This document shows, piece after piece, positions 31,680 through 61,971 of a stretch of DNA of 64,000 bases. The notes under the pieces were generated by a model. That model ran no database searches and had not been told where the DNA came from. It was given only the letters and a program-made list of their open reading frames with translations. A program made the translations under genes and the position numbers. Location of the stretch: positions 11,842,001 to 11,906,000 of the forward strand of contig NC_092672.1 of the NCBI RefSeq assembly GCF_964355755.1. Reading direction: 5' to 3'. This DNA comes from Antedon mediterranea. Lineage: Eukaryota > Animalia > Echinodermata. Each line of letters begins with the position of its first letter. The stretch's first letter is position 1.

Positions 31680-33113
31680 ATGTTTTGCGATATTTGTACA
31701 TTAGTGTGCATCTGTACGTTCATAGATGTGACGCTTTCAGCAAGTTCAATATCAAAGAACCCGGATCATGATACAGTAACGGAAGGCGGAAAAGCTTACT
31801 TCGTTTGCGTAGTTGATAATTTATCTCAAGACGATTACGTCTCATGGATGCACAGTGACATTGAAGTCAGTAAACAAGATAGGATTGTTGAAAGTAAGCT
31901 TCAAAATAGATATTCTATACAAGTTGATAAAGACTATGGCAGTTTTAACCTTAAAATAACAGATGTGCAAAGAGAAGATGCTGGCCAGTATACTTGCACA
32001 ATTTACAATATGGAAAATAAAAAAGTTGTTGCGCAATCTCAACCAGCTAATTTAACTGTTAACCAAATTCCACAAAAATTGTATCCAATTTGCTCTCCTG
32101 TAGAACAATTCTACGTACCAGGAGGCATGGTAACACTAGCTTGTTCTTCGGAAATAACACAACCACCATCTGTTTTAAATTGGATCCAAAATGGTATCAG
32201 AATATCACCTAATCTGTACAAAAATGTGTTTGATCAAAAAATAATGAAAATAGCCTATTCGTTCAAAGCTGAGCGAATTTCAAATCGTGGAATGTTTACA
32301 TGTGAACTTACTTCCACAATTGATCCTACCTTTAGGAATAACTGCAGTATCGGGCCATTAAATATTCGCTACGTTCCTCAAGTCCGTATCGAGCACACAG
32401 GTGTTCTTAAAATTGGCCGCGAAGCAATATATATTTGCTACAGTGAAGCCAATCCTGATAAAGTGACATATATATGGAAAACTGAACCTCAATTAAGAAG
32501 AGACCAATATGAAATAGAAAATGACATAATATTTAGAATTTTATTGTTAACGGTAGATCTTAATGGTACACAGTTATTTTGTGAAGTGAATAATGAAGTA
32601 GGAATTGGAAGTAAAAGTTACAATATCATCTTTTCAAATGAACAATCAACTAAGGTTGGTAATTTAGAAAGTGACATTAACAAGGACATTCATAATAAAA
32701 ACGATGATAAAGTTGGAGAAAATGAAAAAATGCATAAGACGCAGAATGTTGAAGAGATAGAAATGGAAAATAGTTTTGATCTATCACTTATTGTTGTAAT
32801 AGCTGTTGTATGTATATTTGTTATTATTGGCCTAGCTATGATACCTGTTGGTTACATGAGATATACACAAAGACAACCCAGTGACACCATCGGTAGAGGA
32901 AGACCTGTGTCAATACCTGATGTATACTTTGAACCTAGAGATCACATAGATCCTATGCTACCACAGTTAGGCTTATCAGCTCCATGGATGAGGACAGTAG
33001 GAGTTCAAGTTCCTGGTGAATGTGAATATGATGTAACGTATAATACACAAGTTATGCCACAGTTACGACAGGTTTACTACTCACAAAGGGTGTACCCACC
33101 ATCCTCTCTGTAA
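31680..33113 (+). CDS. Array copy 1: 3-Ig type I membrane receptor (unique, most divergent ectodomain)
   Basis: 477 aa. Signal peptide, V-domain FVC..VSW..DAGQYTC, two further Ig domains, TM LIVVIAVVCIFVIIGLAMIPVGY, constant tail ending PPSSL. Confidence 0.93.
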   Translation: MFCDICTLVCICTFIDVTLSASSISKNPDHDTVTEGGKAYFVCVVDNLSQDDYVSWMHSDIEVSKQDRIVESKLQNRYSIQVDKDYGSFNLKITDVQREDAGQYTCTIYNMENKKVVAQSQPANLTVNQIPQKLYPICSPVEQFYVPGGMVTLACSSEITQPPSVLNWIQNGIRISPNLYKNVFDQKIMKIAYSFKAERISNRGMFTCELTSTIDPTFRNNCSIGPLNIRYVPQVRIEHTGVLKIGREAIYICYSEANPDKVTYIWKTEPQLRRDQYEIENDIIFRILLLTVDLNGTQLFCEVNNEVGIGSKSYNIIFSNEQSTKVGNLESDINKDIHNKNDDKVGENEKMHKTQNVEEIEMENSFDLSLIVVIAVVCIFVIIGLAMIPVGYMRYTQRQPSDTIGRGRPVSIPDVYFEPRDHIDPMLPQLGLSAPWMRTVGVQVPGECEYDVTYNTQVMPQLRQVYYSQRVYPPSSL

Positions 33114-33305
33114 TGCTTTTTTCATTTTTTTTAAACCAGTAACATAATTTAATATTTGAAATGGCACATACGAATAATACTTTAAATACACCAATCATAC
33201 TAAATCTACAGAAAATGTAGTATAATGAATTTGATTCGGATTCATTCTGGAAAATATATATTATTGTGAATCAAGATTTTACACAAGAGAAAAGCTGTAT
33301 TTGAG

Positions 33306-34796
33306 ATGATATTACATCCAACATTTTTGTTTATTGCATTTTTACTGCTCAACAAAACGTTTTCCTTTCCTGAATTTATAAAACAGCCAGAGGATGAAAG
33401 CCGAGCCGAAGGAGAACTTACGTATTTTAATTGTATGGTGAAAAATCTTGATGAAGGTGAATATGTTTCATGGCTTCATAATGGTCGGAAAATAAGTAGA
33501 AAAGATATAATTTCTGATACAAGTATATTTGATCGTTATTCAATAGAGTTTGATGACGTATTTAGCACTTATAATTTGCGAATTAAGAATATACAGAGGC
33601 GAGATGTAGGAATATACGCATGCGCAGTTTATGATGATTCTGACAATGTGGTTGCAGAGACTAAATCTTCTAACTTCACAGTACTTCAAATTCCTGAGAA
33701 ATATTACCCATTGTGCTCTAATATAAAAACAAGTTATAAACTTAACCAAAACATTGTTGTTGTATGTTCATCAGAAAAGACCTATCCTCTGCCTAGTTTA
33801 ATTTGGAAGCGAGACGGTATCAATATTGTATCACAATTGGAGGAGAAAACATCACGAGATATATACAAAGTTTCCTATTCAGTTAATGCAAAACAATCCG
33901 ACAACAGAGCTATATTTATATGTGAATTAACAACATCAGCAAACCCATCTATAAGAAGGAATTGTTCTGTTGGACCTATCAACGTTTTATATCCTCCGGT
34001 TGTTAGTATTAAACAGACAAGTGATATCGTTCTTGGCGACGAAGCCATCTTTATTTGTTATAGCGATGCAAATCCACAAGAGAATATTTTTCAATGGAGT
34101 TTTGACCCACCTATCAACAAAAACATGTATTTCTTAGAAAATGAATTCATTCTAAGAATTACAAATGTAGTAATCAGTTTAAATGATACAATTGTTACCT
34201 GCGAAGTAGAAAATTCTGTTGGAAGGAGCTATAGCAAATTAAACATCAATATAAAAAGAAAAACCTCATTTGATAGTAGCGTTAATGATAACGAGGGAAA
34301 TGGAAAAGGCGGATCAAAGAAAAATACAAATGGGTTTAAAACAGAAGGTACAGAGGACGACGGTGCGACGATAGGAAACAAAGAAAAATCAAAGAATCAA
34401 AATAGTAATCAAAATACAATACAGACAAGATCCCAAGACAAGAAAAACAGCACCGATGTATCAATATCATTAGTTATAACCATTGCAGTTGTATGTATTA
34501 TAGTAATTCTAGGATTGGCATTGATACCTGTTGGTTACATGAGATATACACGAAGACAACCTAGTGACACCATCAGTAGAGGAAGACCTGTGTCAATACC
34601 TGATGTATACTTTGAACCTAGAGATCACATAGATCCTATGCTACCACAGTTAGGCTTAGCAGCTCCTTGGATGAGGACAGTAGGAGTTCAAGTTCCTGGT
34701 GAATGTGAATATGATGTAACGTATAATACACAAGTTATGCCACAGTTACGACAGGTTTACTACTCACAAAGAATGTACCCGCCATCATCTTTGTAA
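33306..34796 (+). CDS. Array copy 2 (subfamily B, MILHPTF type)
   Basis: 496 aa intact ORF with the same domain layout and constant tail. Confidence 0.93.
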   Translation: MILHPTFLFIAFLLLNKTFSFPEFIKQPEDESRAEGELTYFNCMVKNLDEGEYVSWLHNGRKISRKDIISDTSIFDRYSIEFDDVFSTYNLRIKNIQRRDVGIYACAVYDDSDNVVAETKSSNFTVLQIPEKYYPLCSNIKTSYKLNQNIVVVCSSEKTYPLPSLIWKRDGINIVSQLEEKTSRDIYKVSYSVNAKQSDNRAIFICELTTSANPSIRRNCSVGPINVLYPPVVSIKQTSDIVLGDEAIFICYSDANPQENIFQWSFDPPINKNMYFLENEFILRITNVVISLNDTIVTCEVENSVGRSYSKLNINIKRKTSFDSSVNDNEGNGKGGSKKNTNGFKTEGTEDDGATIGNKEKSKNQNSNQNTIQTRSQDKKNSTDVSISLVITIAVVCIIVILGLALIPVGYMRYTRRQPSDTISRGRPVSIPDVYFEPRDHIDPMLPQLGLAAPWMRTVGVQVPGECEYDVTYNTQVMPQLRQVYYSQRMYPPSSL

Positions 34797-34985
34797 TGAT
34801 TTTTCCAATTTTCTAAAACCAGTAACACAATTTAATATTTGAAATGGCACATATGAATAATAGTTTAAATACACCAATCAAACTAAATCTACAGAAACGG
34901 TAACACAATGAAATTGTTTTGGATTCATTTTGGAAAATATACGTTGTGAATCAAGATAATACACACGAGAAAAGCTGTATTTGAG

Positions 34986-36476
34986 ATGATATTATATCCA
35001 ACGTTTTGGTTTATTGCATTGTTACTGCTCAACAAAACGTTTTCGTTTCCTGAATTTATAAAACAGCCAGAGGATGAAAGCCGAGCCGAAGGAAAATTTA
35101 CGTTTTTTATTTGTATGGTGACAAATCTTGGGGAAGGTGAATATGTTTCATGGCTGCATAGTGGTCGGAAAATAAGTAGAAATGATATAATTACTGATAC
35201 TAGGGTATTTGATCGTTATTCAGTAGATTTTGATCCAGTATTTAGTACTTACAATTTGCGAATTAAGAATATACAGAGGCAAGATGTAGGAATATACACA
35301 TGCGCAGTTTATGATGATTCTGGCGACATAGTGGCACAGAGTAAAGCTTCTAACTTTACAGTTCTTCAAATTCCTGAGAAATTTTACCCATTATGCTCTA
35401 ATATAAAAACAAGTTATACACTTAACAAAAAAATTGTTGTTGTATGTTCATCAGAAAAGACCTATCCTCTGCCTAGTTTAATTTGGAAGCGTGACGATAT
35501 CAATATTGTATCACCATTGGAGAAAGAATCATCACGAGATACATACAAAGTGTCCTATTCAGTTATTGCAAAACAATCCGACAACAGAGCTATATTTATA
35601 TGTGAATTAACAACATCAGCAAACCCATCTATAGGAAGGAATTGTTCTGTTGGACCTATCAACGTTTTATATCCTCCTGTTGTTCGTATTAAACAGACAA
35701 GTGATATCGTTCTTGGCGACGAAGCCATCTTTATTTGTTATAGCGATGCAAATCCACAAGAGAATATTTTTAGATGGAGATTTGACCCACCTATCAACAA
35801 AAACATGTATTTCTTAGAAAATGAATTCATTCTGAGAATTAGAAATGTAGTACTCAGTTTAAATGATACAATTGTTATCTGCGAAGTAAAAAATTCTGTT
35901 GGAAGTAGCTATAGCAAATTAAACATCAATATAAAAAGAAAAACCTTATTTGATAGTAGCGTTAATGAAAACGAGGGAAATGGAAAAGGTGGATCAAAGA
36001 AAAATACAAATGGGTTTAAAACAGAAGGTACAGAGGACGACGGTGCGACGATAGGAAACAAAGAAAAATCAAAGAATCAAAATAGTAATCAAGATACAAT
36101 ACACACAAGATCCCAAGACAAGGAAAACAGCACCGATGTATCAATATCATTAGTTATAACCATTGCAGTGGTATGTATTATAGTAATTCTAGGTTTGGCA
36201 CTGATACCTGTTGGTTACATGAGATATACACGAAGACAACCTAGTGACACCATCAATAGAGGAAGACCTGTGTCAATACCTGATGTATACTTTGAACCTA
36301 GAGATCACATAGATCCTATGCTACCACAGTTAGGCTTAGCAGCTCCATGGATGAGGACAGTAGGAGTTCAAGTTCCTGGTGAATGTGAATATGATGTAAC
36401 GTATAATACACAAGTTATGCCACAGTTACGACAAGTTTACTACTCACAAAGAATGTACCCACCATCATCTCTATAA
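34986..36476 (+). CDS. Array copy 3 (subfamily B, MILYPTF type)
   Basis: 496 aa intact ORF, collinear with copies 2, 4, 5. Confidence 0.93.
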   Translation: MILYPTFWFIALLLLNKTFSFPEFIKQPEDESRAEGKFTFFICMVTNLGEGEYVSWLHSGRKISRNDIITDTRVFDRYSVDFDPVFSTYNLRIKNIQRQDVGIYTCAVYDDSGDIVAQSKASNFTVLQIPEKFYPLCSNIKTSYTLNKKIVVVCSSEKTYPLPSLIWKRDDINIVSPLEKESSRDTYKVSYSVIAKQSDNRAIFICELTTSANPSIGRNCSVGPINVLYPPVVRIKQTSDIVLGDEAIFICYSDANPQENIFRWRFDPPINKNMYFLENEFILRIRNVVLSLNDTIVICEVKNSVGSSYSKLNINIKRKTLFDSSVNENEGNGKGGSKKNTNGFKTEGTEDDGATIGNKEKSKNQNSNQDTIHTRSQDKENSTDVSISLVITIAVVCIIVILGLALIPVGYMRYTRRQPSDTINRGRPVSIPDVYFEPRDHIDPMLPQLGLAAPWMRTVGVQVPGECEYDVTYNTQVMPQLRQVYYSQRMYPPSSL

Positions 36477-36666: not shown

Positions 36667-38157
36667 ATGATATTACATCCAACATTTTTGTTTATTGCAT
36701 TGTTACTGCTCAACAAAACGTTTTCGTTTCCTGAATTTATAAAACAGCCAGAGGATGAAAGCCGAGCCGAAGGAGAACTTACGTTTTTTAATTGTATGGT
36801 GAAAAATCTTGGTGATGGTGAATATGTTTCATGGATGCAAAATGGTCGTAAAATAAGTAGTAATGATTTAATTGTTGATGTAAGTGTATTTGAGCGATAT
36901 TCAATAGAATTTAATGACGTGTTTAGTATTTACAATTTGCGAATTCAGAATATACAGAGGCGAGATGTAGGAATATACACATGCGCAGTTTATGATGATT
37001 CTGGCGACATAGTGGCACAGAGTAAAGCTTCTAATTTCACAGTACTTGAAATTCCTGAGAAATATTACCCATTATGCTCTAATATAAAAACAAGTTATAA
37101 ACTTAACCAAAACATTGTTGTTGTATGTTCATCAGAAAAAACCTATCCTCTGCCTAGTTTAATTTGGAAGCGAGACGATATCAATATTGTATCACAATTG
37201 GAGGAGGAAACATCACGAGATATATACAAAGTTTCCTATTCAGTTATTGCAAAACAATCCGACAACAGAGCTATATTTATATGTGAATTAACAACATCAG
37301 CAAACCCATCTATAAGAAGGAATTGTTCTGTTGGACCTATCAACGTTTTATATCCTCCTGTTGTTAGTATAAAACAGACAAGTGATATCGTTCTTGGCGA
37401 CGAAGCCATCTTTATTTGTTATAGCGATGCAAATCCACAAGCGAATATTTTTAAATGGAGTTTTGACCCACCTATCAACAAAAACATGTATTTCTTAGAA
37501 AATGAATTCATTCTAAGAATTACAAATGTAGTAATCAGTTTAAATGATACAATTGTTACCTGCGAAGTAGAAAATTCTGTTGGAAGGAGCTATAGTAAAT
37601 TAAACATCAATATAAAAAGAAAAACCTCATTTGATAGTAGCGTTAATGATAACGAGGGAAATGGAAAAGGCGGATCAAAGAAAAATACAAATGGGTTTAA
37701 AACAGAAGGTAAAGAGGACGACGGTGCGACGATAGGAAACAAAGAAAAATCAAAGAATCAAAATAGTAATCAAAATACAATACAGACAAGATCCCAAGAC
37801 AAGAAAAACAGCACCGATGTATCAATATCATTAGTTATAACCATTGCAGTTGTATGTATTATAGTAATTCTAGGGTTGGCATTGCTACCTGTTGGTTACA
37901 TGAGATATACACGTAGACAACCCAGCGACACTATCAGTAGAGGAAGACCTGTGTCAATACCTGATGTATACTTTGAACCTAGAGATCACATAGATCCTAT
38001 GCTACCACAGTTAGGCTTAGCAGTTCCATGGATGAGGACAGTAGGAGTTCAAGTTCCTGGTGAATGTGAATATGATGTAACATATAATACACACGTTATG
38101 CCACAGTTACGACAAGTTTACTACTCACAAAGAATGTACCCACCATCTTCTTTGTAA
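36667..38157 (+). CDS. Array copy 4 (subfamily B, MILHPTF type)
   Basis: 496 aa intact ORF, closest to copy 2. Confidence 0.93.
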   Translation: MILHPTFLFIALLLLNKTFSFPEFIKQPEDESRAEGELTFFNCMVKNLGDGEYVSWMQNGRKISSNDLIVDVSVFERYSIEFNDVFSIYNLRIQNIQRRDVGIYTCAVYDDSGDIVAQSKASNFTVLEIPEKYYPLCSNIKTSYKLNQNIVVVCSSEKTYPLPSLIWKRDDINIVSQLEEETSRDIYKVSYSVIAKQSDNRAIFICELTTSANPSIRRNCSVGPINVLYPPVVSIKQTSDIVLGDEAIFICYSDANPQANIFKWSFDPPINKNMYFLENEFILRITNVVISLNDTIVTCEVENSVGRSYSKLNINIKRKTSFDSSVNDNEGNGKGGSKKNTNGFKTEGKEDDGATIGNKEKSKNQNSNQNTIQTRSQDKKNSTDVSISLVITIAVVCIIVILGLALLPVGYMRYTRRQPSDTISRGRPVSIPDVYFEPRDHIDPMLPQLGLAVPWMRTVGVQVPGECEYDVTYNTHVMPQLRQVYYSQRMYPPSSL

Positions 38158-38347: not shown

Positions 38348-39838
38348 ATGATATTATATCCAACGTTTTGGTTTATTGCATTGTTACTGCTCAACAACAC
38401 GTTTTCATTTCCTGAATTTATAAAACAGCCAGAGGATGAAAGCCGAGCCGAAGGAAAATTTACGTATTTTAATTGTATGGTGACAAATCTTGGTGAAGAT
38501 GAATATGTTTCATGGCTGCATAGTGGTCGGAAAATAAGTACAAATCATTTAATTACTGATACAAGTTTAATAGATCGTTATTCAATATACTTTGATCCAG
38601 TATTTAGCACTTACAATTTGCAAATTAAAAATATACAGAGGCAAGATGTAGGAATATACGCATGCGCAGTTTATGATGATTCTGGCGACATAGTGGCAAA
38701 GAGTAAAGCTTCTAACTTTACAGTACTTGAAATTCCTGAGAAATATTACCCATTATGCTCAAATATAAAAACAAGTTATAAACTTAACCAAAATATTGTT
38801 GTTGTATGTTCATCAGAAAAGACCTATCCTCTGCCTAGTTTAATTTGGAAGCGTGACGATATCAATATTGTATCACCATTGGAAGAAGAAATATCAAAAA
38901 ATACATACAAAGTGTCTTATTCAGTTATTGCAAAAAAATCCGACAACGGAGCTATATTTATATGTGAATTAACAACATCAGCAAACCCATCTATAAGAAG
39001 GAATTGTTCTGTTGGACCTATCAACGTTTTATATCCTCCTGTTGTTCGTATTAAACAGACAAGTGATATTGTTCTTGGCGACGAAGCCATCTTTATTTGT
39101 TATAGCGATGCAAATCCACAAGAGAATATTTTTAAATGGAGTTTTGAACCACCTATCAACAAAAAGATGTATTTCTTAGAAAATAAATTCATTCTGAGAA
39201 TTAGAAATGTAGTACTCAGTTTAAATGATACAATTGTTACCTGCGAAGTAAATAATTCTGTTGGAAGTAGCTATAGTAAATTAAACATCAATATAATCAG
39301 AAAAACCTCATTTGATAGTAACGTTAATACCAACAAGGGAAATGGAAAAGGCGGATCAAACAAAGATACAAATGGGTTTAAAACAGAAGGTACAAAGGAC
39401 GATGGTGCGATGATAGGAAATAAAGAAAAATCAAAGAATCAAAATAGTAATCAAGATACAACACAGACACGATCCCAAGACAAGGAAAACAGCACCGATG
39501 TATCAATATCATTAGTTATAACCATTGCAGTGGTATGTATTATAGTAATTCTAGGGTTGGCATTGATACCTGTTGGTTACATGAGATACACACGAAGACA
39601 ATCTAGTGACACCATCAGTAGAGGAAGACCTGTGTCAATACCTGATGTATACTTTGAACCTAGAGATCATATAGATCCTATGCTACCACAGTTAGGCTTA
39701 GCAGCTCCATGGATGAGGACAGTAGGAGTTCAAGTTCCTGGTGAATGTGAATATGATGTAACATATAATACACAAGTGATGCCACAATCACGACATGTTT
39801 ACTATTCACAGCGTATGTATCCAACAGTGTCACTCTAA
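38348..39838 (+). CDS. Array copy 5 (subfamily B, MILYPTF type; C-terminus PTVSL)
   Basis: 496 aa intact ORF, closest to copy 3. Confidence 0.93.
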   Translation: MILYPTFWFIALLLLNNTFSFPEFIKQPEDESRAEGKFTYFNCMVTNLGEDEYVSWLHSGRKISTNHLITDTSLIDRYSIYFDPVFSTYNLQIKNIQRQDVGIYACAVYDDSGDIVAKSKASNFTVLEIPEKYYPLCSNIKTSYKLNQNIVVVCSSEKTYPLPSLIWKRDDINIVSPLEEEISKNTYKVSYSVIAKKSDNGAIFICELTTSANPSIRRNCSVGPINVLYPPVVRIKQTSDIVLGDEAIFICYSDANPQENIFKWSFEPPINKKMYFLENKFILRIRNVVLSLNDTIVTCEVNNSVGSSYSKLNINIIRKTSFDSNVNTNKGNGKGGSNKDTNGFKTEGTKDDGAMIGNKEKSKNQNSNQDTTQTRSQDKENSTDVSISLVITIAVVCIIVILGLALIPVGYMRYTRRQSSDTISRGRPVSIPDVYFEPRDHIDPMLPQLGLAAPWMRTVGVQVPGECEYDVTYNTQVMPQSRHVYYSQRMYPTVSL

Positions 39839-40068: not shown

Positions 40069-41520
40069 ATGAAGTTTCGAAGCTACATGTTGATTGTTAT
40101 TCCATTTTTGTACGAAGCATCTTCATTCACTGGATTCTTAAAACAGCCGTCAGACGAGAGCGTAGCTGAAGGTGAGCTGACATTTTTTAGTTGTATTGTA
40201 CAGAATCTTGATGGTGGTGAATACGTTTCCTGGTTGTATAATGCTCAGAAGATAAGCAAAAATGATATAATAACTAATAAAATGCTTACTACTCGCTACT
40301 CAATAGACTTTGATCCTGTATTTAAAAAATACAATTTGCAAATATATGACATCCATCGAAGCGATGAAGGACAATACACTTGTGCTGTTTATGATAAAAA
40401 TGAGATTATAGTAAAACAATCAAAAACAGCAAACTTTACCGTACTGCAAACTCCAGGACTAAATTATCCAATATGTACACTGAAAAAACAAACTTACATT
40501 GTTGGAGAAGCTGTTGTACTTGTCTGTATATCAGAAGTAACAAAGCCGTCAGCAACGTTATCATGGGTGAAATATGGTGACATTATTAAGGAAAAGGTTG
40601 TCAATGAAATGGTGAACGGAAATCATCAAACATCTTTTTCATTTACTGCAAGAAAGTCTGATAATAGAGCAATATTTATATGTGAATTGACAACACCAGC
40701 TAACCCATCGATTAGGCGAAATTGTTCAAGTGGGCCCTTCAACATTGTATACCCTCCTATAGTTCATATTCAACAAACAAGTGACGTCATTTTGGGCAAT
40801 GAAGGCATCTTTATTTGTTACAGTGATGCGAATCCACAGGAAACTACATTTGAATGGAGCTTTGATCCACCCATTGAAGAAAATATGTATTTGTTGGAAA
40901 GTGAAAGAATTTTAAGGATTGAAAATACAATAAGTAGTTTAAATGGGACAAGTGTCATATGTAAAGTTACTAATTCCATTGGAAGTGGATCTAGTAAATT
41001 AATATTGAAAATTAGAACGGAAGAAACTATTAATAATGTAGTTGAAACAAACAATGGAAAAGAAACCGACACGTCCGAAAAACCTCATGAAAGAAATAAG
41101 TCTAAGTCGAAGAATCAAAATTTAAACAACAATCAGCAGTTATTGCAGACTAACTCGCCAAACAACAACAGTACTGATGATATTTCAATTTCGTTGGTTG
41201 TCATAATTGCATTGGTATGCATTATAGTAATTCTAGGTTTGGCTATGATACCTGTTGGTTACATGAAATATACACGAAGACAACCCAGTGACACCATCAG
41301 TAGAGGAAGGCCTGTGTCATTACCTGATGTATATTTTGAACCTAGAGATCACATAGATCCTATGCTACCACAGTTAGGCTTAGCAGCTCCTTGGATGAAG
41401 ACAGTAGGAGTTCAAGTTCCTGGTGAATGTGAATATGATGTAACGTATAATACACAAGTTATGCCACAATTACGACAGGTGTACTATACACAACGGATGT
41501 ATCCTGCAGCTCCACTCTGA
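40069..41520 (+). CDS. Array copy 6 (singleton; C-terminus PAAPL)
   Basis: 483 aa intact ORF with the same Cys/Trp skeleton and tail. Confidence 0.93.
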   Translation: MKFRSYMLIVIPFLYEASSFTGFLKQPSDESVAEGELTFFSCIVQNLDGGEYVSWLYNAQKISKNDIITNKMLTTRYSIDFDPVFKKYNLQIYDIHRSDEGQYTCAVYDKNEIIVKQSKTANFTVLQTPGLNYPICTLKKQTYIVGEAVVLVCISEVTKPSATLSWVKYGDIIKEKVVNEMVNGNHQTSFSFTARKSDNRAIFICELTTPANPSIRRNCSSGPFNIVYPPIVHIQQTSDVILGNEGIFICYSDANPQETTFEWSFDPPIEENMYLLESERILRIENTISSLNGTSVICKVTNSIGSGSSKLILKIRTEETINNVVETNNGKETDTSEKPHERNKSKSKNQNLNNNQQLLQTNSPNNNSTDDISISLVVIIALVCIIVILGLAMIPVGYMKYTRRQPSDTISRGRPVSLPDVYFEPRDHIDPMLPQLGLAAPWMKTVGVQVPGECEYDVTYNTQVMPQLRQVYYTQRMYPAAPL

Positions 41521-45025: not shown

Positions 45026-45208
45026 TGATTGCTGTTCAGAACAAATAACACAACTTTTAAAATGATTTGCCATGTTGCAATACCATTGTAAATAGATCAT
45101 AAATATTCATATTTGTATATCGTGACCAATACACTGTATGCTGATATGTCTGACTTCTTTTCTCAAGTATGTTGTAACATTTGGATAATATAGATTGAAT
45201 ATGACATC

Positions 45209-46675: not shown

Positions 46676-46885
46676 TTGCTTTTCAGAACAAATAACACAA
46701 CTTTAAAATTATTTGCCATGTTGCAATACCATTGTAAATAGATCATACATATTCATGTTATCTTTATACATATGCATAATATGTAATGTATATATATCGT
46801 GATCAATACACTGTATGCTGGTATGTCTGACTTGTTTTTTCAAGTATGTTGTAACATTTTAATACTATAATTTGACAATGACATC

Positions 46886-48358: not shown

Positions 48359-48567
48359 AGATTGCTGTTTAAGAACAAATAACACAACTTTTTAAATGAT
48401 TTGCCATGTTGTAATACCATTGTAAATAGATCATAAATATTCATGTTATAATTATACATATACAGAATATGTAATGTATATTGTGACCAATACACTCTAT
48501 GCTGGTATGTTGACTTGTTTTCTCAAGTATGTTGTGACATTTGGATAATATACTTCGAAATGACATC

Positions 48568-50037: not shown

Positions 50038-50250
50038 TGATTGTTGTTTCAGAACAAATAACACAACTTTTAAAATGATTTGCCATGTTTCAATACAATT
50101 GTAAATACATCATAAATATTCATGTTATATTTATGCACACACAGAATAAGTAATTTATATCGTGATACACTGTATGCTGGTATGTTCGACTTCTTTTTTC
50201 TCAAGTAAGTTGTAACAATTATGTAATAATATACTTTAAACAATGACATC

Positions 50251-51708: not shown

Positions 51709-51926
51709 TGATTGCTGTTTCAGAACAAATAACACAACTTTTTAAATGATTTGCCATGTTGCTATACCATTGTAAATAGATCATAAATATTCATGTTATA
51801 ATTATGCACACGCAGAATAAGTAATTTATATCGTGATCAATACATTGTATGCTGGTATGTTCGACTTCTTTTTTTCTCAAGTAAGTTGTAACATTTATGT
51901 AATTATATACTTTAAACAATGACATC

Positions 51927-53390
51927 ATGCTAGGTATTGGAACAACTGTTGGTACTTGGGTATTTTTTTACATGTTTATGTTGCAGAGAACTTATTCCTT
52001 CTCAGGATTCATAAAAGAGCCATTAGATGAGAATCAAGCCGAAGGTGATTTAACATATTTTACTTGTATTGTACGAGAACTTGATGAAACTCAATATATT
52101 TCTTGGTTACATAATGGACGCAAGATAAGTCAAAATGGCGAAATTATTATAAATACATACGCACATTATTCAATTGATTATAATTCAGTATTTGGTACAT
52201 GCACCTTAAGAATTCAAAACGTACAGCGGAGAGATAAAGGAGGATATACATGTACCGTTTATGATAGCAACGATCAAATTGTTGAGAAATCAAGGACAGC
52301 TAATTTTACAGTTTCAGAAATTCCTCAACAACAATATCCGATTTGTTCTTCAACTAAAAGGAGTTATCGCGTTGGCCAACACGTTGTTCTTAACTGTATT
52401 TCGGAAAAGACCACACCCCCAGCCTTGTTAAGATGGGTACATAATATTGGAGGTAGTGAATCAGGATTAAAAGAATCGTTAACTGGTAATTACGAAAACT
52501 CTTATTCATTTATTGCAAAACAATCTGACAATAGAGCAATATTTACATGTGAATTAACAACACCAGCAAATCCGTCATTATATAGTAATTGTACAATTGG
52601 TCCTCTTGATGTTTTATATGCTCCTACTGTTCGAATTGAACAAACACGTGACGTCATTCTTGGTAATGAAGCCATCTTTATTTGTTATAGTGATGCAAAT
52701 CCACAGGAATCTTCGTTTAAATGGAGCTTTGTTCCACCTCTTACTGAAAACATGTTTGTGTTGGAAAATGACATAATTTTGAGAATTAAAAATACAGTAA
52801 GTAGTTTAAATGGGACAAGTGTCATATGTGCAGTTACTAATTCGATTGGAAGTGGATCTAGTAAATTGATAATAAACGTAAAATCGAAAGAATCTACTAA
52901 TAATGTAGTTGAAACAAACAATGGAAAAGAAACGAAAAAGTTTGAAAAACCAAATGAAAGAAACAAAAATAAATCGAAAAATCAAAACTCTAACAGCAAT
53001 CAACCACTATTGCAGACTCGAACGCCAAACAACAACAACAGCAGTAATGATATTTCAATTTCTCTTGTTGTGATAATTGCATTGGTGTGTATCATAGTAA
53101 TTCTAGGATTGGCTATGATACCTGTTGGTTACATGAGATATACTCGTAGACAACCCAGTGACACCATCAGTAGAGGAAGACCTGTGTCAATACCTGATGT
53201 ATACTTTGAACCTAGAGATCACATAGATCCTATGCTACCACAGTTAGGCTTAGCAGCGCCATGGATGAGGACAGTAGGAGTTCAAGTTCCTGGTGAATGT
53301 GAATATGATGCCACATATAATACACAAGTTATGCCACAGGCACGACATGTATACTATACACAACGGATGTACCCGGCGTCTTCGTTGTAA
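51927..53390 (+). CDS. Array copy 13 (subfamily C)
   Basis: 487 aa intact ORF; N-terminus nearly identical to copy 12, stalk like copy 10. Confidence 0.93.
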   Translation: MLGIGTTVGTWVFFYMFMLQRTYSFSGFIKEPLDENQAEGDLTYFTCIVRELDETQYISWLHNGRKISQNGEIIINTYAHYSIDYNSVFGTCTLRIQNVQRRDKGGYTCTVYDSNDQIVEKSRTANFTVSEIPQQQYPICSSTKRSYRVGQHVVLNCISEKTTPPALLRWVHNIGGSESGLKESLTGNYENSYSFIAKQSDNRAIFTCELTTPANPSLYSNCTIGPLDVLYAPTVRIEQTRDVILGNEAIFICYSDANPQESSFKWSFVPPLTENMFVLENDIILRIKNTVSSLNGTSVICAVTNSIGSGSSKLIINVKSKESTNNVVETNNGKETKKFEKPNERNKNKSKNQNSNSNQPLLQTRTPNNNNSSNDISISLVVIIALVCIIVILGLAMIPVGYMRYTRRQPSDTISRGRPVSIPDVYFEPRDHIDPMLPQLGLAAPWMRTVGVQVPGECEYDATYNTQVMPQARHVYYTQRMYPASSL

Positions 53391-53602
53391 TGATTGCTGT
53401 TTCAGAACAACTAACACAACTTTTTAAATGATTTGCCATGTTGCAATACCATTGTAAATAGATCATAAATATTCATGTTATAATTATACATACAGAATAT
53501 GTAATGTATATCGCGACCAATACACACTATGCTGGTATATCTGACTTGTTTTCTGAAGTATGTTGTAACATTTGGATAATAATTATACTTCGAAATGACA
53601 TC

Positions 53603-55072
53603 ATGTACACCTTAGGTATTGGAAACACTTTTGGCACTTGGATATTTTTATATATGTTGATGTTGCAGAGAACTTATTCCTTCTCAGGATTCATAAAAGA
53701 GCCACTAGATGAGAATAAAGCTGAGGGTGATTTGACATATTTTACTTGTATTGTACGAGAAATTGATGAAACTCAATATGTTTCTTGGTTACACAATGGA
53801 CGCAAGATAAGTAAAAATGGCGAAATTATCATCAATACATACGCACATTATTCAATTGATTATGATTCAACATTTTTTGTTAAATGTAACTTACAAATTC
53901 AAAATATAAAACGAAGCGATAAAGGGGAATATGTATGTACAGTTTACGATAGCAACGATCGGATTGTGGACAAATCAAGGACAGCTAATTTTACAGTTTT
54001 AGAAATTCCTCAACAACAATATCCGATTTGTTCTTCGACTAAAACGAGTTATCATGTTGGCCAGAATGTTGTTCTTAACTGTATTTCGGAAAACACCAAT
54101 CCTCTACCTATTCTTACATGGACACAAAATATTGTTGGAGGCATTGAATTAGGATTAAAAGAATCGTTAACTGGTAATTATGAAAAGTCTTATTCATTTA
54201 TTGCAAAACAATCTGACAACAGAGCAATATTTACATGTGAATTAACAACATCAGCAAATCCGTCTATAGAAAGGAATTGTACAATTGGTCCTCTTGATGT
54301 TTTATATCCCCCTATTGTTCGTATCCAACAAACACGTGATGTCATTATTGGTAATGAAGCCATCTTTATTTGTTATAGTGATGCAAATCCTCAAGAAACT
54401 ACGTTTGAATGGAACTTTGATCCACCTATTAGTGAAAATATGTTTGTGTTGGAAAATGATATAATTTTGAGAATTAAAAATACTGTAAGTAGTTTAAATG
54501 GGACAAGTGTCATATGTAAAGTTACTAATTCCATTGGAAGTGGATCTAGTAAATTGATAGTGAACGTAAAATCTAAAGAATCTATTAATAATGTAGTTGA
54601 AACGAACAATGGAAAAGAAACGAACAAGCCTGAAAAACCAAATCAAGGAAACAAAAATAAATCGAACAATCAAAATTCTAACAGCAATCAACAACTATTG
54701 AAGACTAGATCGCCAAACAACAGCAGTACAGATATTTCAATTTCGTTGGTTGTGATAATTGCATTAGTGTGTATCATAGTAATTCTAGGATTGGCTATGA
54801 TACCTGTTGGTTACATGAAATATACACGTAGACAACCCAGTGACACCATCAGTAGAGGAAGACCTGTGTCAATACCTGATGTATACTTTGAACCTAGAGA
54901 TCACATAGATCCTATGCTACCACAGTTAGGCTTAGCAGCTCCATGGATGAGGACAGTAGGAGTTCAAGTTCCTGGTGAATGTGAATATGATGTCACATAT
55001 AATACACAAGTTATGCCACAGTTACGACAGGTATACTATACACAACGGATGTACCCAGCTTCTTCGTTGTAA
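53603..55072 (+). CDS. Array copy 14 (subfamily C)
   Basis: The ORF track starts at an upstream ATG 53504. The homologous start (MYTLGIG, gacatcATG) is 53603. Confidence 0.88.
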   Translation: MYTLGIGNTFGTWIFLYMLMLQRTYSFSGFIKEPLDENKAEGDLTYFTCIVREIDETQYVSWLHNGRKISKNGEIIINTYAHYSIDYDSTFFVKCNLQIQNIKRSDKGEYVCTVYDSNDRIVDKSRTANFTVLEIPQQQYPICSSTKTSYHVGQNVVLNCISENTNPLPILTWTQNIVGGIELGLKESLTGNYEKSYSFIAKQSDNRAIFTCELTTSANPSIERNCTIGPLDVLYPPIVRIQQTRDVIIGNEAIFICYSDANPQETTFEWNFDPPISENMFVLENDIILRIKNTVSSLNGTSVICKVTNSIGSGSSKLIVNVKSKESINNVVETNNGKETNKPEKPNQGNKNKSNNQNSNSNQQLLKTRSPNNSSTDISISLVVIIALVCIIVILGLAMIPVGYMKYTRRQPSDTISRGRPVSIPDVYFEPRDHIDPMLPQLGLAAPWMRTVGVQVPGECEYDVTYNTQVMPQLRQVYYTQRMYPASSL

Positions 55073-55260: not shown

Positions 55261-56715
55261 ATGTACGTTTTAGGAATTGGAAAGTCTTTTGGAATATGGG
55301 TAGTTTTGTATTTATTGATGTTTCAGAGAACACATTCTTTATCTGGATTCAATACAGAGCCTGGGGATGAAAATCAGGCAGAAGGTGATTTAACCTATTT
55401 TACTTGTATTGTACGAGGACTCGATGACACTCACTATGTTTCTTGGTTGCATAATGGACGCAAGATTAGTAAAAATTATGACATTATATCAGATATCAAT
55501 AGATATTCAATCGAGTTTGATTCAAATTCTAGAAAATACAACTTTGAAATTGAGAATACTCAAAGGCAAGATAAAGGAGAATACGTATGCGCTGTTTATG
55601 ATAGCAGTGACAGAATTGTGGTCAAATCTAGAACAGCTAATTTAACAGTTTCAGAAATTCCACAAGAACCTTACCCTATTTGTCATAACGCTAAGCTAAG
55701 CTATTCCGCTGGACAAAGTGTGCTTCTTTCATGTATATCTGAAAAGACATCTCCTCTTGCTCATTTAAAATGGAAACAAAATAATTTGGATGTTACGACA
55801 GGATTAAGTGAAGACACATCTAGTGGTAATTATAAAGTATCGTATTCATTTACTGCAAGAAAATCCCATAATAGAGCAATATTTATATGTGAATTAACAA
55901 CATCCGTTAACCCAACTATTAGAAGGAATTGTTCTATTGGACCTATCAACGTTTTATATGCCCCTGTTGTTCGAATTGAGCAAACAAGTGACGTCATACT
56001 TGGTACTGAAGCCATCTTCATTTGTTATAGTGATGCAAATCCACAAGAAACTACATATCAATGGAGTTTTGATCCACCTATAGACGAAACTATGTATTAT
56101 TTAGAAAATGAATTTATTTTGAGAATTAAAAAAACAGTAAATAGTTTAAATGGCATACAAGTTATCTGCAAAGTAACGAATTCTATTGGAAGTGAGTCAG
56201 ACAAATTAATAATCAAAATAAAGACGAGAGGAGACATAACAAATAATGAAGATGAAGAATATGACAAAACGGTTGATGAAAATAAAGATATATCTGATAA
56301 CAATAAGGTAAATAAAAATCAACAATTGTTGCAAACAAGATCACCAACTATAAATAACAGTCATAGTAATTCAGATATTTCAATATCTCAAGTTGTCATC
56401 ATTGCAGTGGTATGTATTATATTAATTCTAGGTTTGGCAATGATACCTGTTGGTTACATTAAATATACACGACGACAACCCAGTGACACCATCAGTAGAG
56501 GAAGACCTGTGTCAATACCTGATGTATACTTTGAACCTAGAGATCACATAGATCCTATGCTACCGCAGTTAGGCTTAGCAGCTCCATGGATGAGGACAGT
56601 AGGAGTTCAAGTTCCTGGTGAATGTGAATATGATGCCACATATAATACACAAGTGATGCCACAATCACGACAGGTGTACTATACACAACGGATGTACCCG
56701 GCATCTTCGTTGTAA
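55261..56715 (+). CDS. Array copy 15 (subfamily D, MYVLGIG type)
   Basis: 484 aa intact ORF; acidic stalk; SQVV at the TM start. Confidence 0.93.
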   Translation: MYVLGIGKSFGIWVVLYLLMFQRTHSLSGFNTEPGDENQAEGDLTYFTCIVRGLDDTHYVSWLHNGRKISKNYDIISDINRYSIEFDSNSRKYNFEIENTQRQDKGEYVCAVYDSSDRIVVKSRTANLTVSEIPQEPYPICHNAKLSYSAGQSVLLSCISEKTSPLAHLKWKQNNLDVTTGLSEDTSSGNYKVSYSFTARKSHNRAIFICELTTSVNPTIRRNCSIGPINVLYAPVVRIEQTSDVILGTEAIFICYSDANPQETTYQWSFDPPIDETMYYLENEFILRIKKTVNSLNGIQVICKVTNSIGSESDKLIIKIKTRGDITNNEDEEYDKTVDENKDISDNNKVNKNQQLLQTRSPTINNSHSNSDISISQVVIIAVVCIILILGLAMIPVGYIKYTRRQPSDTISRGRPVSIPDVYFEPRDHIDPMLPQLGLAAPWMRTVGVQVPGECEYDATYNTQVMPQSRQVYYTQRMYPASSL

Positions 56716-56903: not shown

Positions 56904-58358
56904 ATGTACGTTTTGGGAATTGGAAAGTCTTTTGGAACATGGATAGTCTTGTATTTATTGATGTTTCAGGAAACACATACTTTATCTGGATTTAATACAG
57001 AGCCCGGGGATGTAAATCAAGCAGAAGGTGATTTGACCTATTTCAACTGTATCGTGCGAGGACTTGATGACACTCACTATGTTTCTTGGTTGCATAATGG
57101 ACGCAAGATTAGTAAAAATTATGACATTATATCAGATAACAATCGATATGCAATCGAGTTTGATTCTAATTCTAGAAAATACAACTTTGAAATTGAGAAT
57201 ACTCAAAGAAAAGATAAAGGAGAATACGTATGCGCTGTTTATGATAGCAGTGACAACATTGTGGTCAAATCTAGAACAGCTAATTTAACAGTTTTAGAAA
57301 TTCCTCAAGAAAATTATCCTATTTGTCATAACGCTAAGCAAAGCTATTCCGCTGGACAAAGTGTGCTTCTTTCATGTATATCTGAAAAGACATCTCCTCT
57401 TGCTCATTTAAAATGGAAACACAATAGTATTGATGTTACGACAGGATTAAGTGAAGACACATCTAGTGGTAATTACAAAGTATCGTATTCATTTATTGCA
57501 AGACAATCCAATAATAGAGCAGTATTTATATGTGAATTAACAACATCCGTTAACCCAACTATAAGAAGGAATTGTTCTATTGGACCTATCAATGTTTTAT
57601 ATGCTCCTGTTGTTCGTATTGAACAAACGAGTGACGTCATACTTGGTAATGAAGCCATCTTTATTTGCTATAGTGATGCAAATCCACAAGAAGCTACGTA
57701 TCAATGGAGTTTTGATCCACCTATAGACGAAACTATGTATTATTTAGAAAATGAATTTATTATGAGAATTAAAAAAACAACAAATAGTTTAAATGGTATA
57801 CAAGTTATCTGCAAAGTAACGAATTCTATTGGAAGTGAGTCAAACAAATTAATAATCAAAGTAAAGACGAGAGGAGTCATAGCAGACAATGAAGATGTAG
57901 ATTATGACAAAGCAATCGATGAAAATAAAGATATATCTGATAGCAAAAAGGTAAATAAAAATCAACAAATGTTGCAAACAAAATCACCAACTATAAACAA
58001 CAGTAATACGGATTCAGATATTTCAATATCTCTAGTTGTCATAATTGCATTAGTATGTATTATAGTAATTCTAGGGTTGGCATTGATACCTGTTGGTTAC
58101 ATGAGATATACACGGAGACAACCTAATGACACCATAAGTAGAGGAAGACCTGTGTCAATACCTGATGTATACTTTGAACCTAGAGATCACATAGATCCTA
58201 TGTTACCACAGTTAGGCTTAGCAGCTCCATGGATGAGGACAGTAGGAGTTCAAGTTCCTGGTGAATGTGAATATGATGCCACATATAATACACAAGTTAT
58301 GCCACAGCCACGACATGTATACTATACACAACGGATGTACCCAGCTTCATCGTTGTAA
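56904..58358 (+). CDS. Array copy 16 (subfamily D)
   Basis: 484 aa intact ORF. Confidence 0.93.
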   Translation: MYVLGIGKSFGTWIVLYLLMFQETHTLSGFNTEPGDVNQAEGDLTYFNCIVRGLDDTHYVSWLHNGRKISKNYDIISDNNRYAIEFDSNSRKYNFEIENTQRKDKGEYVCAVYDSSDNIVVKSRTANLTVLEIPQENYPICHNAKQSYSAGQSVLLSCISEKTSPLAHLKWKHNSIDVTTGLSEDTSSGNYKVSYSFIARQSNNRAVFICELTTSVNPTIRRNCSIGPINVLYAPVVRIEQTSDVILGNEAIFICYSDANPQEATYQWSFDPPIDETMYYLENEFIMRIKKTTNSLNGIQVICKVTNSIGSESNKLIIKVKTRGVIADNEDVDYDKAIDENKDISDSKKVNKNQQMLQTKSPTINNSNTDSDISISLVVIIALVCIIVILGLALIPVGYMRYTRRQPNDTISRGRPVSIPDVYFEPRDHIDPMLPQLGLAAPWMRTVGVQVPGECEYDATYNTQVMPQPRHVYYTQRMYPASSL

Positions 58359-58564
58359 TGATTGCTGTTGTAGAACTAATAACACAACATTTAAACTGAT
58401 TTGCCATACCTTTTTAATACAATCATTAATATTCATATTATGTTTATGCATATGCAAAACTTATCAGGTATACTGTATTGCGAACTATACACTGTATGTT
58501 GCTCGACTTCTGTTTTACGAATATGGCGTAAGGTTTCCATAATTCACTTTTAAACAATGACATT

Positions 58565-60022
58565 ATGTACGTTTTAGGCATTGGAAAGTCTTTTGGAACA
58601 TGGGTAGTTTTGTATTTTCTGATGTTTCAAAGAACATATTCTTTATCTGGATTCATTAAAGAGCCTGCGGATGAAAATCAAGCAGAAGGTGATTTAACCT
58701 ATTTTACTTGCATTGTACGTGGACTCGATGAAACTCAATATGTTTCTTGGTTGCATAATGGACGCAAGATTAGTAACAACTATGACATTTTATCAGATAC
58801 TAATCGATATTCAATCGATATTGATTCAAATTCTAGAAAATATAACTTTGAAATTGAGAATACACAAAGGCAAGATAAAGGAGAATACGTATGCGCTGTT
58901 TATGATAGCAGGGACAGCATTGTGGTCAAATCTAGAACAGCTAATTTAACAGTTTTAGAAATTCCTCAAGAACCTTACCCTCTTTGTCATAACGCTAAGC
59001 TAAGCTATTCCGCTGGACAAAGTGTGCTTCTTTCATGTATATCTGAAAAGACATCTCCTCTTGCCCATTTAAAATGGAAACAAAATGATATTGATGTTAC
59101 CACAGGATTAAGTGAAGACACATCTAGTGGTAATTACAAAGTATCGTATTCATTTATTGCAAGACAATCTAATAATAGAGCAGTATTTATATGTGAATTA
59201 ACAACATCCGTAAACCCAACTATAAGAAGGAATTGTTCTATTGGACCTATCAATGTTTTATATGTTCCTGTTGTTCGTATTGAACAAACGAGTGACGTCA
59301 TACTTGGTACTGAAGCCATCTTCATTTGCTATAGTGATGCAAATCCACAAGAAGCTACGTATCAATGGAGTTTTGATCCACCTATAGACGAAACTATGTA
59401 TTATTTAGAAAATGAGTTTATTTTGAGAATTAAAAGAACAGTAAATAGTTTAAATGGTATACATGTTATCTGCAAAGTAACGAATTCTATTGGAAGTGAG
59501 TCGAACAAATTAATAATCAAAGTAAAAACGAGAGGAGACATAGCAGACAATGAAGATGTAGATTATGACAAAACGGTTGATGAAAATAAAGATATATCTG
59601 ATAACAAAAAGGTAAACAAAAATCAACAATTGCTGCAAACACGATCACCAACTATAAATAACAGTCATAATAATTCAGATATTTCAATATCTCAAGTTGT
59701 CATCATTGCAGTGGTATGTATTATAGTAATTCTAGGATTGGCATTGATACCTGTTGGTTACATTAAATACACACGACGACAACCCAGTGACACCATCAGT
59801 AGAGGAAGACCTGTGTCAATACCTGATGTATACTTTGAACCTAGAGATCATATAGATCCTATGTTACCACAGATAGGCTTAGCAGCTCCATGGATGAGGA
59901 CAGTAGGAGTTCAAGTTCCTGGTGAATGTGAATATGATGCCACATATAATACACAAGTTATGCCACAGCCACGACAGGTATACTATACACAACGGATGTA
60001 CCCAGCTTCTTCGTTGCAATGA
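58565..60022 (+). CDS. Array copy 17 (subfamily D; C-terminus SSLQ)
   Basis: 485 aa intact ORF; TAA-to-CAA change followed by TGA. Confidence 0.93.
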   Translation: MYVLGIGKSFGTWVVLYFLMFQRTYSLSGFIKEPADENQAEGDLTYFTCIVRGLDETQYVSWLHNGRKISNNYDILSDTNRYSIDIDSNSRKYNFEIENTQRQDKGEYVCAVYDSRDSIVVKSRTANLTVLEIPQEPYPLCHNAKLSYSAGQSVLLSCISEKTSPLAHLKWKQNDIDVTTGLSEDTSSGNYKVSYSFIARQSNNRAVFICELTTSVNPTIRRNCSIGPINVLYVPVVRIEQTSDVILGTEAIFICYSDANPQEATYQWSFDPPIDETMYYLENEFILRIKRTVNSLNGIHVICKVTNSIGSESNKLIIKVKTRGDIADNEDVDYDKTVDENKDISDNKKVNKNQQLLQTRSPTINNSHNNSDISISQVVIIAVVCIIVILGLALIPVGYIKYTRRQPSDTISRGRPVSIPDVYFEPRDHIDPMLPQIGLAAPWMRTVGVQVPGECEYDATYNTQVMPQPRQVYYTQRMYPASSLQ

Positions 60023-60225
60023 TTGCTGTTTCAGAACTAATAACACAACATTTAAACTGATTTGCCATACCTTCTTAATACAATCATTAATATTCATAGT
60101 ATGTTTATGCATATGCAAAACTTATCAGGTATACTGTATTGCGAACTATACACTGTATGTTGCTCGACTTCTGTTTTACGAATATGGCGTAAGGTTTCCA
60201 TAATATACTTTTAAACAATGACATT

Positions 60226-61680
60226 ATGTACGTTTTAGGCATTGGAATGCCTTTTGGAACATGGGTAGTTTTGTATTTGTTGATGTTTCAGAGAATATGT
60301 TCCTTATCCGGATTCATTAAGGAGCCTGCGGATGAAAATCAAGCAGAAGGTGATTTGACATATTTCAACTGTATTGTAAGAGGACTCGATGAAACTCACT
60401 ATGTTTCTTGGTTGCATAATGGACGCAAGATTAGTAAAAATTATGACATTATATCAGATAACAATCGATATTCAATCGAGTTTGATTCTAATTCTAGAAA
60501 ATACAACTTTGAAATTGAGAATACTCAAAGGCAAGATAAAGGAGAATACGTATGCGCAGTTTATGATAGCAGTGACAGCATTGTGGTCAAATCTAGAACA
60601 GCTAATTTAACAGTTTCAGAAATTCCTCAAGAACCTTACCCTCTTTGTCATAACGCTAAGCTAAGCTATTCCGCTGGACAAAGTGTGCTTCTTTCATGTA
60701 TATCTGAAAAGACATCTCCTCTTGCTCATTTAAAATGGAGACACAGTAATATTGATGTTACGACAGGATTAAGTGAAGACACATCTAGTGGTAATTACAA
60801 AGTATCGTATTCATTTATTGCAAGACAATCCAATAATAGAGCAATATTTATATGTGAATTAACAACATCCGTTAACCCAATTATAAGAAGGAATTGTTCT
60901 ATTGGACCTATCAATGTTTTATATGCGCCTGTTGTTCGTATTGAACAAACGAGTGACGTCATACTTGGTAATGAAGCCATCTTCATTTGTTATAGTGATG
61001 CAAATCCAAAAGAAGCTACATATCAATGGAGTTTTGATCCACCCATAGACGAAACTATGTATTATTTAGAAAATGAATTTATTTTGAGAATTAAAAACAC
61101 AGTAAATAGTTTAAATGGTATACAAGTTATCTGCAAAGTAACGAATTCTATTGGAAGTGAGTCAAACAAATTAATAATCAAAGTAAAAACGAGAGGAGAT
61201 ATGCCAGACAATGAAGATGTAGAATATGACAAAACATTCGAAGAAAATATAGATATATCTGATAGTAAAATGGTAAATAAAAATCAGCAATTGCTGCGAA
61301 CAAGATCACCAACTATAAACAACAGTAATACGAATTCAGATATTTCAATATCTCTAGTTGTCATCATTGCAGTTGTATGTATTATAGTAATTCTAGGTTT
61401 GGCATTGATACCTGTTGGTTACATGAGATATACACGTAGACAACCCAGTGACATCATCAATAGAGGAAGACCTGTGTCAATACCTGATGTATACTTTGAA
61501 CCTAGAGATCACATAGATCCTATGCTACCACAGTTAGGCTTAGCAGCTCCATGGATGAGGACAGTAGGAGTTCAAGTTCCTGGTGAATGTGAATATGATG
61601 TAACGTATAATACACAAGTTATGCCACAGTTACGACAGGTTTACTACTCACAAAGAATGTACCCAGCAGCTTCACTGTAG
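60226..61680 (+). CDS. Array copy 18 (subfamily D ectodomain, copy 1-4-type tail end; last unit)
   Basis: 484 aa intact ORF ending PAASL-TAG. No further unit is visible up to 64000. Confidence 0.93.
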   Translation: MYVLGIGMPFGTWVVLYLLMFQRICSLSGFIKEPADENQAEGDLTYFNCIVRGLDETHYVSWLHNGRKISKNYDIISDNNRYSIEFDSNSRKYNFEIENTQRQDKGEYVCAVYDSSDSIVVKSRTANLTVSEIPQEPYPLCHNAKLSYSAGQSVLLSCISEKTSPLAHLKWRHSNIDVTTGLSEDTSSGNYKVSYSFIARQSNNRAIFICELTTSVNPIIRRNCSIGPINVLYAPVVRIEQTSDVILGNEAIFICYSDANPKEATYQWSFDPPIDETMYYLENEFILRIKNTVNSLNGIQVICKVTNSIGSESNKLIIKVKTRGDMPDNEDVEYDKTFEENIDISDSKMVNKNQQLLRTRSPTINNSNTNSDISISLVVIIAVVCIIVILGLALIPVGYMRYTRRQPSDIINRGRPVSIPDVYFEPRDHIDPMLPQLGLAAPWMRTVGVQVPGECEYDVTYNTQVMPQLRQVYYSQRMYPAASL

Positions 61681-61965: not shown

Positions 61966-61971
61966 AATAAA
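61966..61971 (+). terminator. First AATAAA downstream of the last array ORF (candidate polyA signal)
   Basis: AATAAA at 61966, another at 62111. The motif is common by chance in AT-rich DNA. Confidence 0.3.

Follow-up and report, generated by a model that had tools for sequence, protein, structure and literature searches.

A tandem array of 18 receptor-like genes in the feather star Antedon mediterranea, a crinoid, keeps one short piece of its coding DNA almost uniform. The array lies in a 64-kb stretch of genomic DNA (G+C 32%), which was analysed whole and is referred to as the window. The genes are predicted to encode surface proteins with immunoglobulin (Ig) domains, and the extracellular parts of these proteins are highly divergent. 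Conversely, DNA encoding the core of the cytoplasmic tail is homogeneous even at synonymous sites. The reading that we favour, with a probability of about 0.8, is that the core is kept homogeneous mostly by gene conversion and unequal crossover focused on an island of homology.

The window contains 19 long uninterrupted open reading frames (ORFs) on the + strand, all with intronless coding parts. Eighteen are consecutive (31680-61680), with gaps of 183-332 nucleotides (nt) between each stop codon and the next start. The remaining ORF stands alone (3914-5317). Alignment gives a common layout: a hydrophobic N-terminus, three Ig domains (Ig1-3), a low-complexity stalk, one transmembrane (TM) helix and a tail of ~90 residues. 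Pfam assigned Ig-family domains, and no cadherin family, to 4/4 proteins scanned. Ectodomains define six subfamilies among the array genes, here numbered c01 to c18: A (c01), B (c02-05), C (c06), D (c07), E (c08-14) and F (c15-18).

Divergence was expressed as the proportion of synonymous (pS) or non-synonymous (pN) differences, using Nei and Gojobori site counts on a codon alignment. For the 120 between-subfamily pairs, pS was 0.56 in Ig1-3 and 0.50 in the TM helix. Within the tail it fell to 0.13 in part A and 0.07 in part B, but was 0.41 across the last 36 columns. Over the whole tail, all 153 pairs differ at 6 to 32 positions per 270 nt (median 19). The homogeneity is limited to a core of about 150-190 nt and does not extend to the 3' end of the tail. 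An initial inspection made without database searches, the sequence-only reading, had described the tail DNA as nearly invariant. This holds for a core of ~190 nt, not for the tail as a whole. Similar synonymous divergence in tail and ectodomain would have refuted that reading; the values found, 0.07-0.13 for the core and 0.56 for Ig1-3, do not.

The first two genes had been singled out for their similar tails and divergent ectodomains. From the IPVGY codons to the stop, c01 and c02 indeed differ at 10/270 nt (6 synonymous and 4 non-synonymous changes). In the Ig domains this pair is close to saturation (pS 0.71, pN 0.39). Against the other copies, the pS of c01 is 0.69-0.75 for the Ig domains but 0.06-0.26 for the tail; its tail and that of c18 (pS 0.06) are among the most alike. 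A 34-mer within the core has exactly 18 occurrences on the + strand, one in each array ORF (positions 32994 to 61561), so its reported invariance was confirmed for all 18 copies. A 15-mer string at the tail start is exact in 16/18. The solo gene encodes the tail motifs with other codons, as previously noticed (codon string at 5174; tail pS 0.70 against c02). Core variation affects 27/153 sites, mostly private to one copy, and includes 14/34 synonymous sites. Radical single-copy changes are present (Asp>Tyr, Tyr>Ser, Gly>Arg). Private and radical variants are as expected for young mutations arising between overwrites. The genes and elements concerned are as follows.

3914..5317, + strand: solo paralog, 467 amino acids; three Ig domains, TM helix, tail carrying PDIYFEPRD and SVGVQVPGE; not part of the homogenised pool
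31680..33113, + strand: c01 (subfamily A); most divergent ectodomain; tail resembles those of c02-c04 and c18
33306..34796, + strand: c02 (B), from ORF and alignment
34986..36476, + strand: c03 (B), from ORF and alignment
36667..38157, + strand: c04 (B), from ORF and alignment
38348..39838, + strand: c05 (B ectodomain; 3' tail end and spacer of its own)
40069..41520, + strand: c06 (C, sole member)
41763..43214, + strand: c07 (D, sole member); 3' tail end of the type preceding E genes
43547..45025, + strand: c08 (E), from ORF and alignment
45209..46675, + strand: c09 (E), from ORF and alignment
46886..48358, + strand: c10 (E), from ORF and alignment
48568..50037, + strand: c11 (E), from ORF and alignment
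50251..51708, + strand: c12 (E); three-codon deletion in the 5' tail
51927..53390, + strand: c13 (E), from ORF and alignment
53603..55072, + strand: c14 (E ectodomain, F-type spacer); homologous ATG at 53603
55261..56715, + strand: c15 (F), from ORF and alignment
56904..58358, + strand: c16 (F), from ORF and alignment
58565..60022, + strand: c17 (F), from ORF and alignment
60226..61680, + strand: c18 (F ectodomain, B-type tail); last gene
32880..33032, + strand: homogenised tail core of c01, 153 nt (SDT...CEYD), with 27/153 sites variable among the 18 copies
Starts of the core in c02-c10, + strand (about): 34563, 36243, 37924, 39605, 41287, 42981, 44792, 46439, 48125
Starts of the core in c11-c18, + strand (about): 49804, 51475, 53157, 54839, 56482, 58125, 59786, 61447
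32994..33027, + strand: invariant 34-mer, first of 18 (codons TVGVQVPGECE)
61455..61662, + strand: likely conversion tract in c18; identity with c03 spans tail nt 47-227 and identity with c02 spans 34 codons from TVGV
33140..33146, + strand: TAACA(C/T)A motif, first of 17 internal copies, 18-40 nt past the stop
61681..64000, no strand assigned: AT-rich single-copy region past the last gene; AATAAA at 61966, 62111, 62361 and 63226

An extra in-frame ATG of c14 at 53504 is probably incidental. Two genes, c09 and c17, stop one codon later than the other copies. The deletion in c12 is an in-frame loss of three codons at 51445-51475, directly 5' of the core. The region at 61681-64000 is possibly a long 3' untranslated region (UTR). 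Its first part (61681-61720) resembles an F-type spacer up to the place of the TAACA(C/T)A motif and then lacks it.

The subfamily signal switches across the core. On the 5' side the sequence follows the gene's own subfamily; on the 3' side it follows the subfamily of the next gene. With 12 pairs per class, not independent and drawn from few independent events, pairs of the same next but different own subfamily differ by 0.28 at -227 from the 34-mer start and by 0.04 at 73-113 nt past it, while pairs of the same own but different next subfamily differ by 0.05 and 0.14. The 3' end and spacer of c01 are those of c02-04, the 3' tail end of c07 is that of c08-13, and the spacer of c14 is that of c15-17. 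In this respect c05 and c18 are unlike their sisters. We infer that this register switch is the product of unequal crossover between the cores of two unlike neighbours. Such crossover would account for part of the likeness between the c01 and c02 tails. Briefly, if the duplicated unit spans tail core to tail core, the 3' half of the c02 tail is a recent copy of the c01 tail. Hence, the example on which the sequence-only reading relied is partly explained more simply. The tail pS of this pair (0.10) matches the ectodomain pS among c02-05 (0.07-0.11).

The last gene provides a likely case of conversion. From the 34-mer onward (102 nt), c18 has 0 differences to c02, 1 to c03 and 10 to its sister c17. 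Copies c02 and c03 lie 25-27 kb from c18, and c03 and c18 have an unbroken run of 35 shared polymorphic sites. Read contigs from two sequencing runs, X2 (DNA) and X1 (guessed to be RNA), were placed on two stretches of the window, 14600-34500 and 60025-64000. In runs X1 and X2, the B-type end of c18 is joined to unique downstream DNA (contigs 61635-61867, 61647-61854). Across the array, the longest identical run lies beyond all 300 permutations in 22/153 pairs, 13 for the tail and 9 for the ectodomain (uncorrected).

A simple mechanism can be proposed. Selection on protein motifs of the tail (PDxYFEP, GVQVP) would first have kept the DNA similar. Recombination would then have locked this similarity. 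The core would be the sole stretch still alike enough to pair across all 18 genes. Hence, conversion and crossover would concentrate there and overwrite silent differences. Each subfamily would have begun to expand when two unlike neighbours crossed over within their tail cores, duplicating a unit of 3' tail, spacer and next ectodomain. The array is then predicted to supply receptors that differ in their adhesion or recognition ends yet share their signalling end. Three signatures of interlocus conversion were found: low regional synonymous divergence, identical tracts between non-sister copies and species-diagnostic sites. The conversion process itself is known from fugu protocadherins and from other gene families; the array was not found in the published literature searched.

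The species-diagnostic sites come from a comparison with a second crinoid, made on protein sequences. A search with the tail matched 15 proteins, only from crinoids: 8 from the contig of the array itself and 7 from Anneissia japonica (XP_033107803, 805-808, 911, 912; named 'cell adhesion molecule 2-like' at source). In a tree of tails, the 18 from the window and the 7 from Anneissia are split by a 100/97 branch. No common residue between the species is found at 7/90 tail columns, three of them in the core, and each is invariant in the 18 window copies. Such columns number 10/293 in the Ig domains and none is invariant in the window. For c01, the ratio of own-array to Anneissia distance is 1.03 in the Ig domains (interval 0.95-1.12) and 0.46 in the core (0.11-1.03). 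A variable outside with a constant tail is also evident in the independent Anneissia assembly. We regard the cross-species argument as supportive, but modest and not decisive, because ectodomains also partly group by species.

The tail motifs are retained beyond the array. PDxYFEPxD, W and GVQVP are invariant across six aligned tails, including those of the solo gene and of P0016. The latter, encoded outside the window, is a third and distant paralog with PDxYFEPRD and GVQVP. Hence, the motifs are older than the array. YFEP resembles tyrosine adaptor-binding motifs and is a candidate lead only. Similarly, GVQVP resembles the dynein-light-chain consensus GIQVD, as given in an excerpt of PMC2700376, and may be a lead. 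Among 13 candidate shorter proteins with the tail, none was significant. A metagenome scan with the tail alignment gave 109 pattern matches and no relative among them.

Several observations weigh against recombination focused on the core. The four-gamete fraction is 105/276 in the tail and 6746/16290 in the ectodomain, giving no tail-specific support. The G+C content of third codon positions (GC3) is not raised (0.227 in the core, 0.218 in Ig1-3), although a rise in converted regions is common rather than obligatory. The longest invariant run, 35 nt, exceeds the null expectation (p 0.011 uniform, 0.017 codon-aware) in a test for which the core was picked after the data were seen. This run may be the centre of overlapping tracts, or may reflect constraint at the level of bases. 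Selection for intact promoter-gene units would leave the same register switch. Between species, an approximately unbiased (AU) test on ectodomains does not reject a single clade of all 18 (p-AU 0.244), and the c02-c18 ectodomains group by species already (96/97). The bootstrapped within/between-species ratio of the core (0.14-0.76) overlaps that of Ig1-3 (0.72-0.85). Three further distance ratios have intervals reaching 1.

The ectodomains have features of their own. Subfamily E (43547-55072) has mosaics: c10 and c14 are nearest in Ig1 (0.071), not in Ig2 (0.118). Short identical Ig3 runs of c06 (40069-41520) are common to c07, c09, c12 and c14, which suggests conversion outside the tail too. 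Ig1 is the most divergent domain within each of the three multi-copy subfamilies. Positive selection on the ectodomains was not shown, the pooled ratio of non-synonymous to synonymous rates (dN/dS) being about 0.3.

Constraint on bases could arise if the tail core, chiefly the 34-mer, also acts as a promoter or enhancer of the next gene, or as a 3'-end signal, so that selection holds silent sites. We consider this unlikely as the cause of the homogeneity. The short distance from stop to next start would suit such a role. So would the TAACA(C/T)A motif, found 18-40 nt past the stop in 17/17 internal genes, including those with otherwise poorly aligning spacers. It is absent past c18 and past the solo gene, and has a background of 0.46 per kb. 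The motif could alternatively be old homology preserved at the fringe of conversion tracts. The poly(A) hexamers AATAAA and ATTAAA are missing from 14/17 spacers, which is not rarer than in shuffles (P(none) 0.19-0.56). As noted, the 34-mer varies less than the remaining core does, by a modest margin (p 0.011-0.017). The pentamer AGGAA, which we take to be an ETS-type core, is on each core strand in four array copies examined and not in the solo gene. A depth-19 contig of X1, possibly RNA, extends over most of the last spacer into the first part of c18 (60051-60264), which is a weak pointer and shows no single transcript.

Other properties of the core do not fit a regulatory role as the cause of the homogeneity. 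It is intact in c18, though no next gene follows within the window. Outside the array, the best match to the 34-mer is in the solo gene (23/34) and the next is 20/34. Hence, c01 has no such element upstream. Neither strand of the core folds stably (z +1.3 and +0.6), and there is no Rfam match in 31000-64000. Variation at 27/153 sites, with radical singletons, is evidently tolerated. Finally, base-level selection leaves unexplained why c18 equals c02 and c03, and not c17, in the variable 3' part. The sequence-only reading had proposed either conversion and crossover or a cis-element. The register switch, the c18 tract and the species-specific residues argue for the former; the promoter or RNA element is not supported as the cause, though it may have an added role.

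Sequencing depth bears on a more trivial explanation, that tail identity is an artefact of assembly or polishing. Tandem near-identical repeats are prone to such artefacts, and nothing specific was observed. In X2, one tail contig has a depth of 577 vs 39-49 on single-copy pieces, and tail contigs reach ~12x single-copy depth. Contigs tie unique flanks to tails with 0-2 differences; for example, an X2 contig with 2 differences (31281-32868) runs from the c01 ectodomain into the beginning of its tail. Each tail has private variants and the same pattern is present in the independent Anneissia assembly. An artefact is thus extremely improbable.

Run X1 behaves differently from X2. X1 depth is 3-5 on single-copy pieces that lie upstream of the array or in the c01 ectodomain, and 11-39 on the pieces listed for B and F genes. 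Past c18, single-copy DNA has an X1 depth of 20-125 and an X2 depth of 24-49. The contrast suggests that X1 is RNA and that the array and the downstream region are transcribed, although contig depth cannot rank gene parts and gives no strand, start or end. The piece at 62988-64000 has the highest single-copy X1 depth listed (124.6 vs 40.8 in X2). It may belong to a long 3' UTR of c18, or else to the end of a different gene.

These depths also touch on the idea that the animal exploits the repeated cores within its own cells, with somatic recombination or hidden splicing joining any ectodomain to the 3' end of the last gene. X1 depth on single-copy pieces is far higher past c18 (60-125) than upstream of the array (3-5), while X2 has 34-49 in both places. 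Poly(A) hexamers are few in internal spacers and several lie past c18. The first and last tails are also among the most alike (pS 0.06). However, no joint is listed over 60025-64000 in X1 or X2. For the upstream stretch, 15 of 218 joints are listed, all among upstream repeats and none touching the array. The invariant 34-mer has no AG-GT junction, and every gene keeps an intact frame with a signal peptide and a stop of its own. The depth argument is limited in that contig depth cannot rank gene parts and the high-depth piece may belong to another transcript. We consider such joining very improbable.

Two further features lie upstream of the array. A 79-nt inverted repeat (30805-30883 and 31232-31310, 94% alike) is about 400-900 nt upstream of c01. 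A 157-codon frame on the - strand (25773-26246), resembling a long interspersed nuclear element (LINE) or reverse transcriptase, is presumably a decayed retroelement.

If conversion and crossover at the core are the correct explanation, the array is an unusually clean case of localised concerted evolution. The island is only 190 nt long, a register switch ties the crossovers to it, and a second species offers a comparison. Through a shared tail, many different sensors would have a common signalling end, in the manner of vertebrate protocadherins. With variable ectodomains and a constant tail, the array is a candidate cell-identity or self-recognition system in an early-branching deuterostome. 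It is also related in design to the skeleton-fusion protein KirrelL. Were the tail also to control the next gene, this would be rare triple-job coding DNA: signalling motif, recombination hub and regulatory element. The boldest synthesis is a protocadherin-like recognition code of crinoids, built from intronless KirrelL-like Ig receptors. The recombination island would replace spliced constant exons, and the same island with TAACACA would also switch the next gene on. Cells would choose receptor subsets for self-recognition in fusion, nerve wiring or immunity. This is speculative, and we give it only a small chance of being right in full.

Among known systems, the layout recalls Nectin, CADM and Fasciclin-3 proteins: V/I-set, C2 and Ig domains in order, one TM helix and a ~90-residue tail. 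Nectin-3, cell adhesion molecule 4 and Fasciclin-3 are among the closest Atlas clusters at 0.95. However, the tail search gave no vertebrate protein. The Nectin/CADM likeness is one of generic Ig domains; the names were assigned automatically, and among solved structures Robo, NCAM and SYG-2 are the best relatives.

Another parallel is echinoderm KirrelL. In the excerpted text of PMC8903837, KirrelL and its relatives Kirrel2L, Hypp1164 and IgTM are intronless Ig-domain transmembrane genes; a reporter assay of that study in sea urchin embryos worked with an element from a feather star. Expression in skeleton-forming cells and a role in cell fusion characterise the KirrelL family. The array shares this character of intronless echinoderm Ig-TM genes, though array relatives were found only in crinoids. 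By eye, likeness to KirrelL extends to the linker past Ig1 (xPxxxYPxC) and the end of Ig2 (FxCxxT...RxC), as far as the excerpt of PMC8903837 goes. The same text treats KirrelL as one gene per species, unlike the 18 tandem crinoid genes. Also by eye, the Aj_kirrelL shown there (PMC8903837) is none of the seven Anneissia array proteins and is distinct from P0008-P0015. Judged by eye only, the array seems to belong with the intronless Ig-TM genes of echinoderms that group around KirrelL, without being the KirrelL ortholog.

The design also resembles that of the clustered protocadherins, which rely on stochastic promoter choice and homophilic recognition. In both, surface receptor genes stand in tandem, their 5' ectodomains diverge, and homogenisation of the 3' coding DNA reaches synonymous sites, a pattern read as repeated conversion. 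Regional conversion in human and zebrafish protocadherins was reportedly described by Noonan et al. in 2004. Unlike protocadherins with their six cadherin repeats, the crinoid proteins have Ig rather than cadherin domains, and their island is only ~190 nt and cytoplasmic. The array is also without sign of spliced constant exons: each ORF has its own tail and stop, and no joint is listed over 60025-64000 (contigs, with X1 uncertain as RNA). In fugu, the available passages of PMC1852091 describe regional conversion in the Pcdh2 alpha and gamma subclusters, with a clear GC3 rise in converted regions. Conversely, GC3 in the crinoid core is flat. Homogenisation of fugu protocadherins acts within a subcluster, whereas the crinoid island spans all six subfamilies. 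Unlike its fugu counterparts, the crinoid island is also the inferred crossover point of gene duplication.

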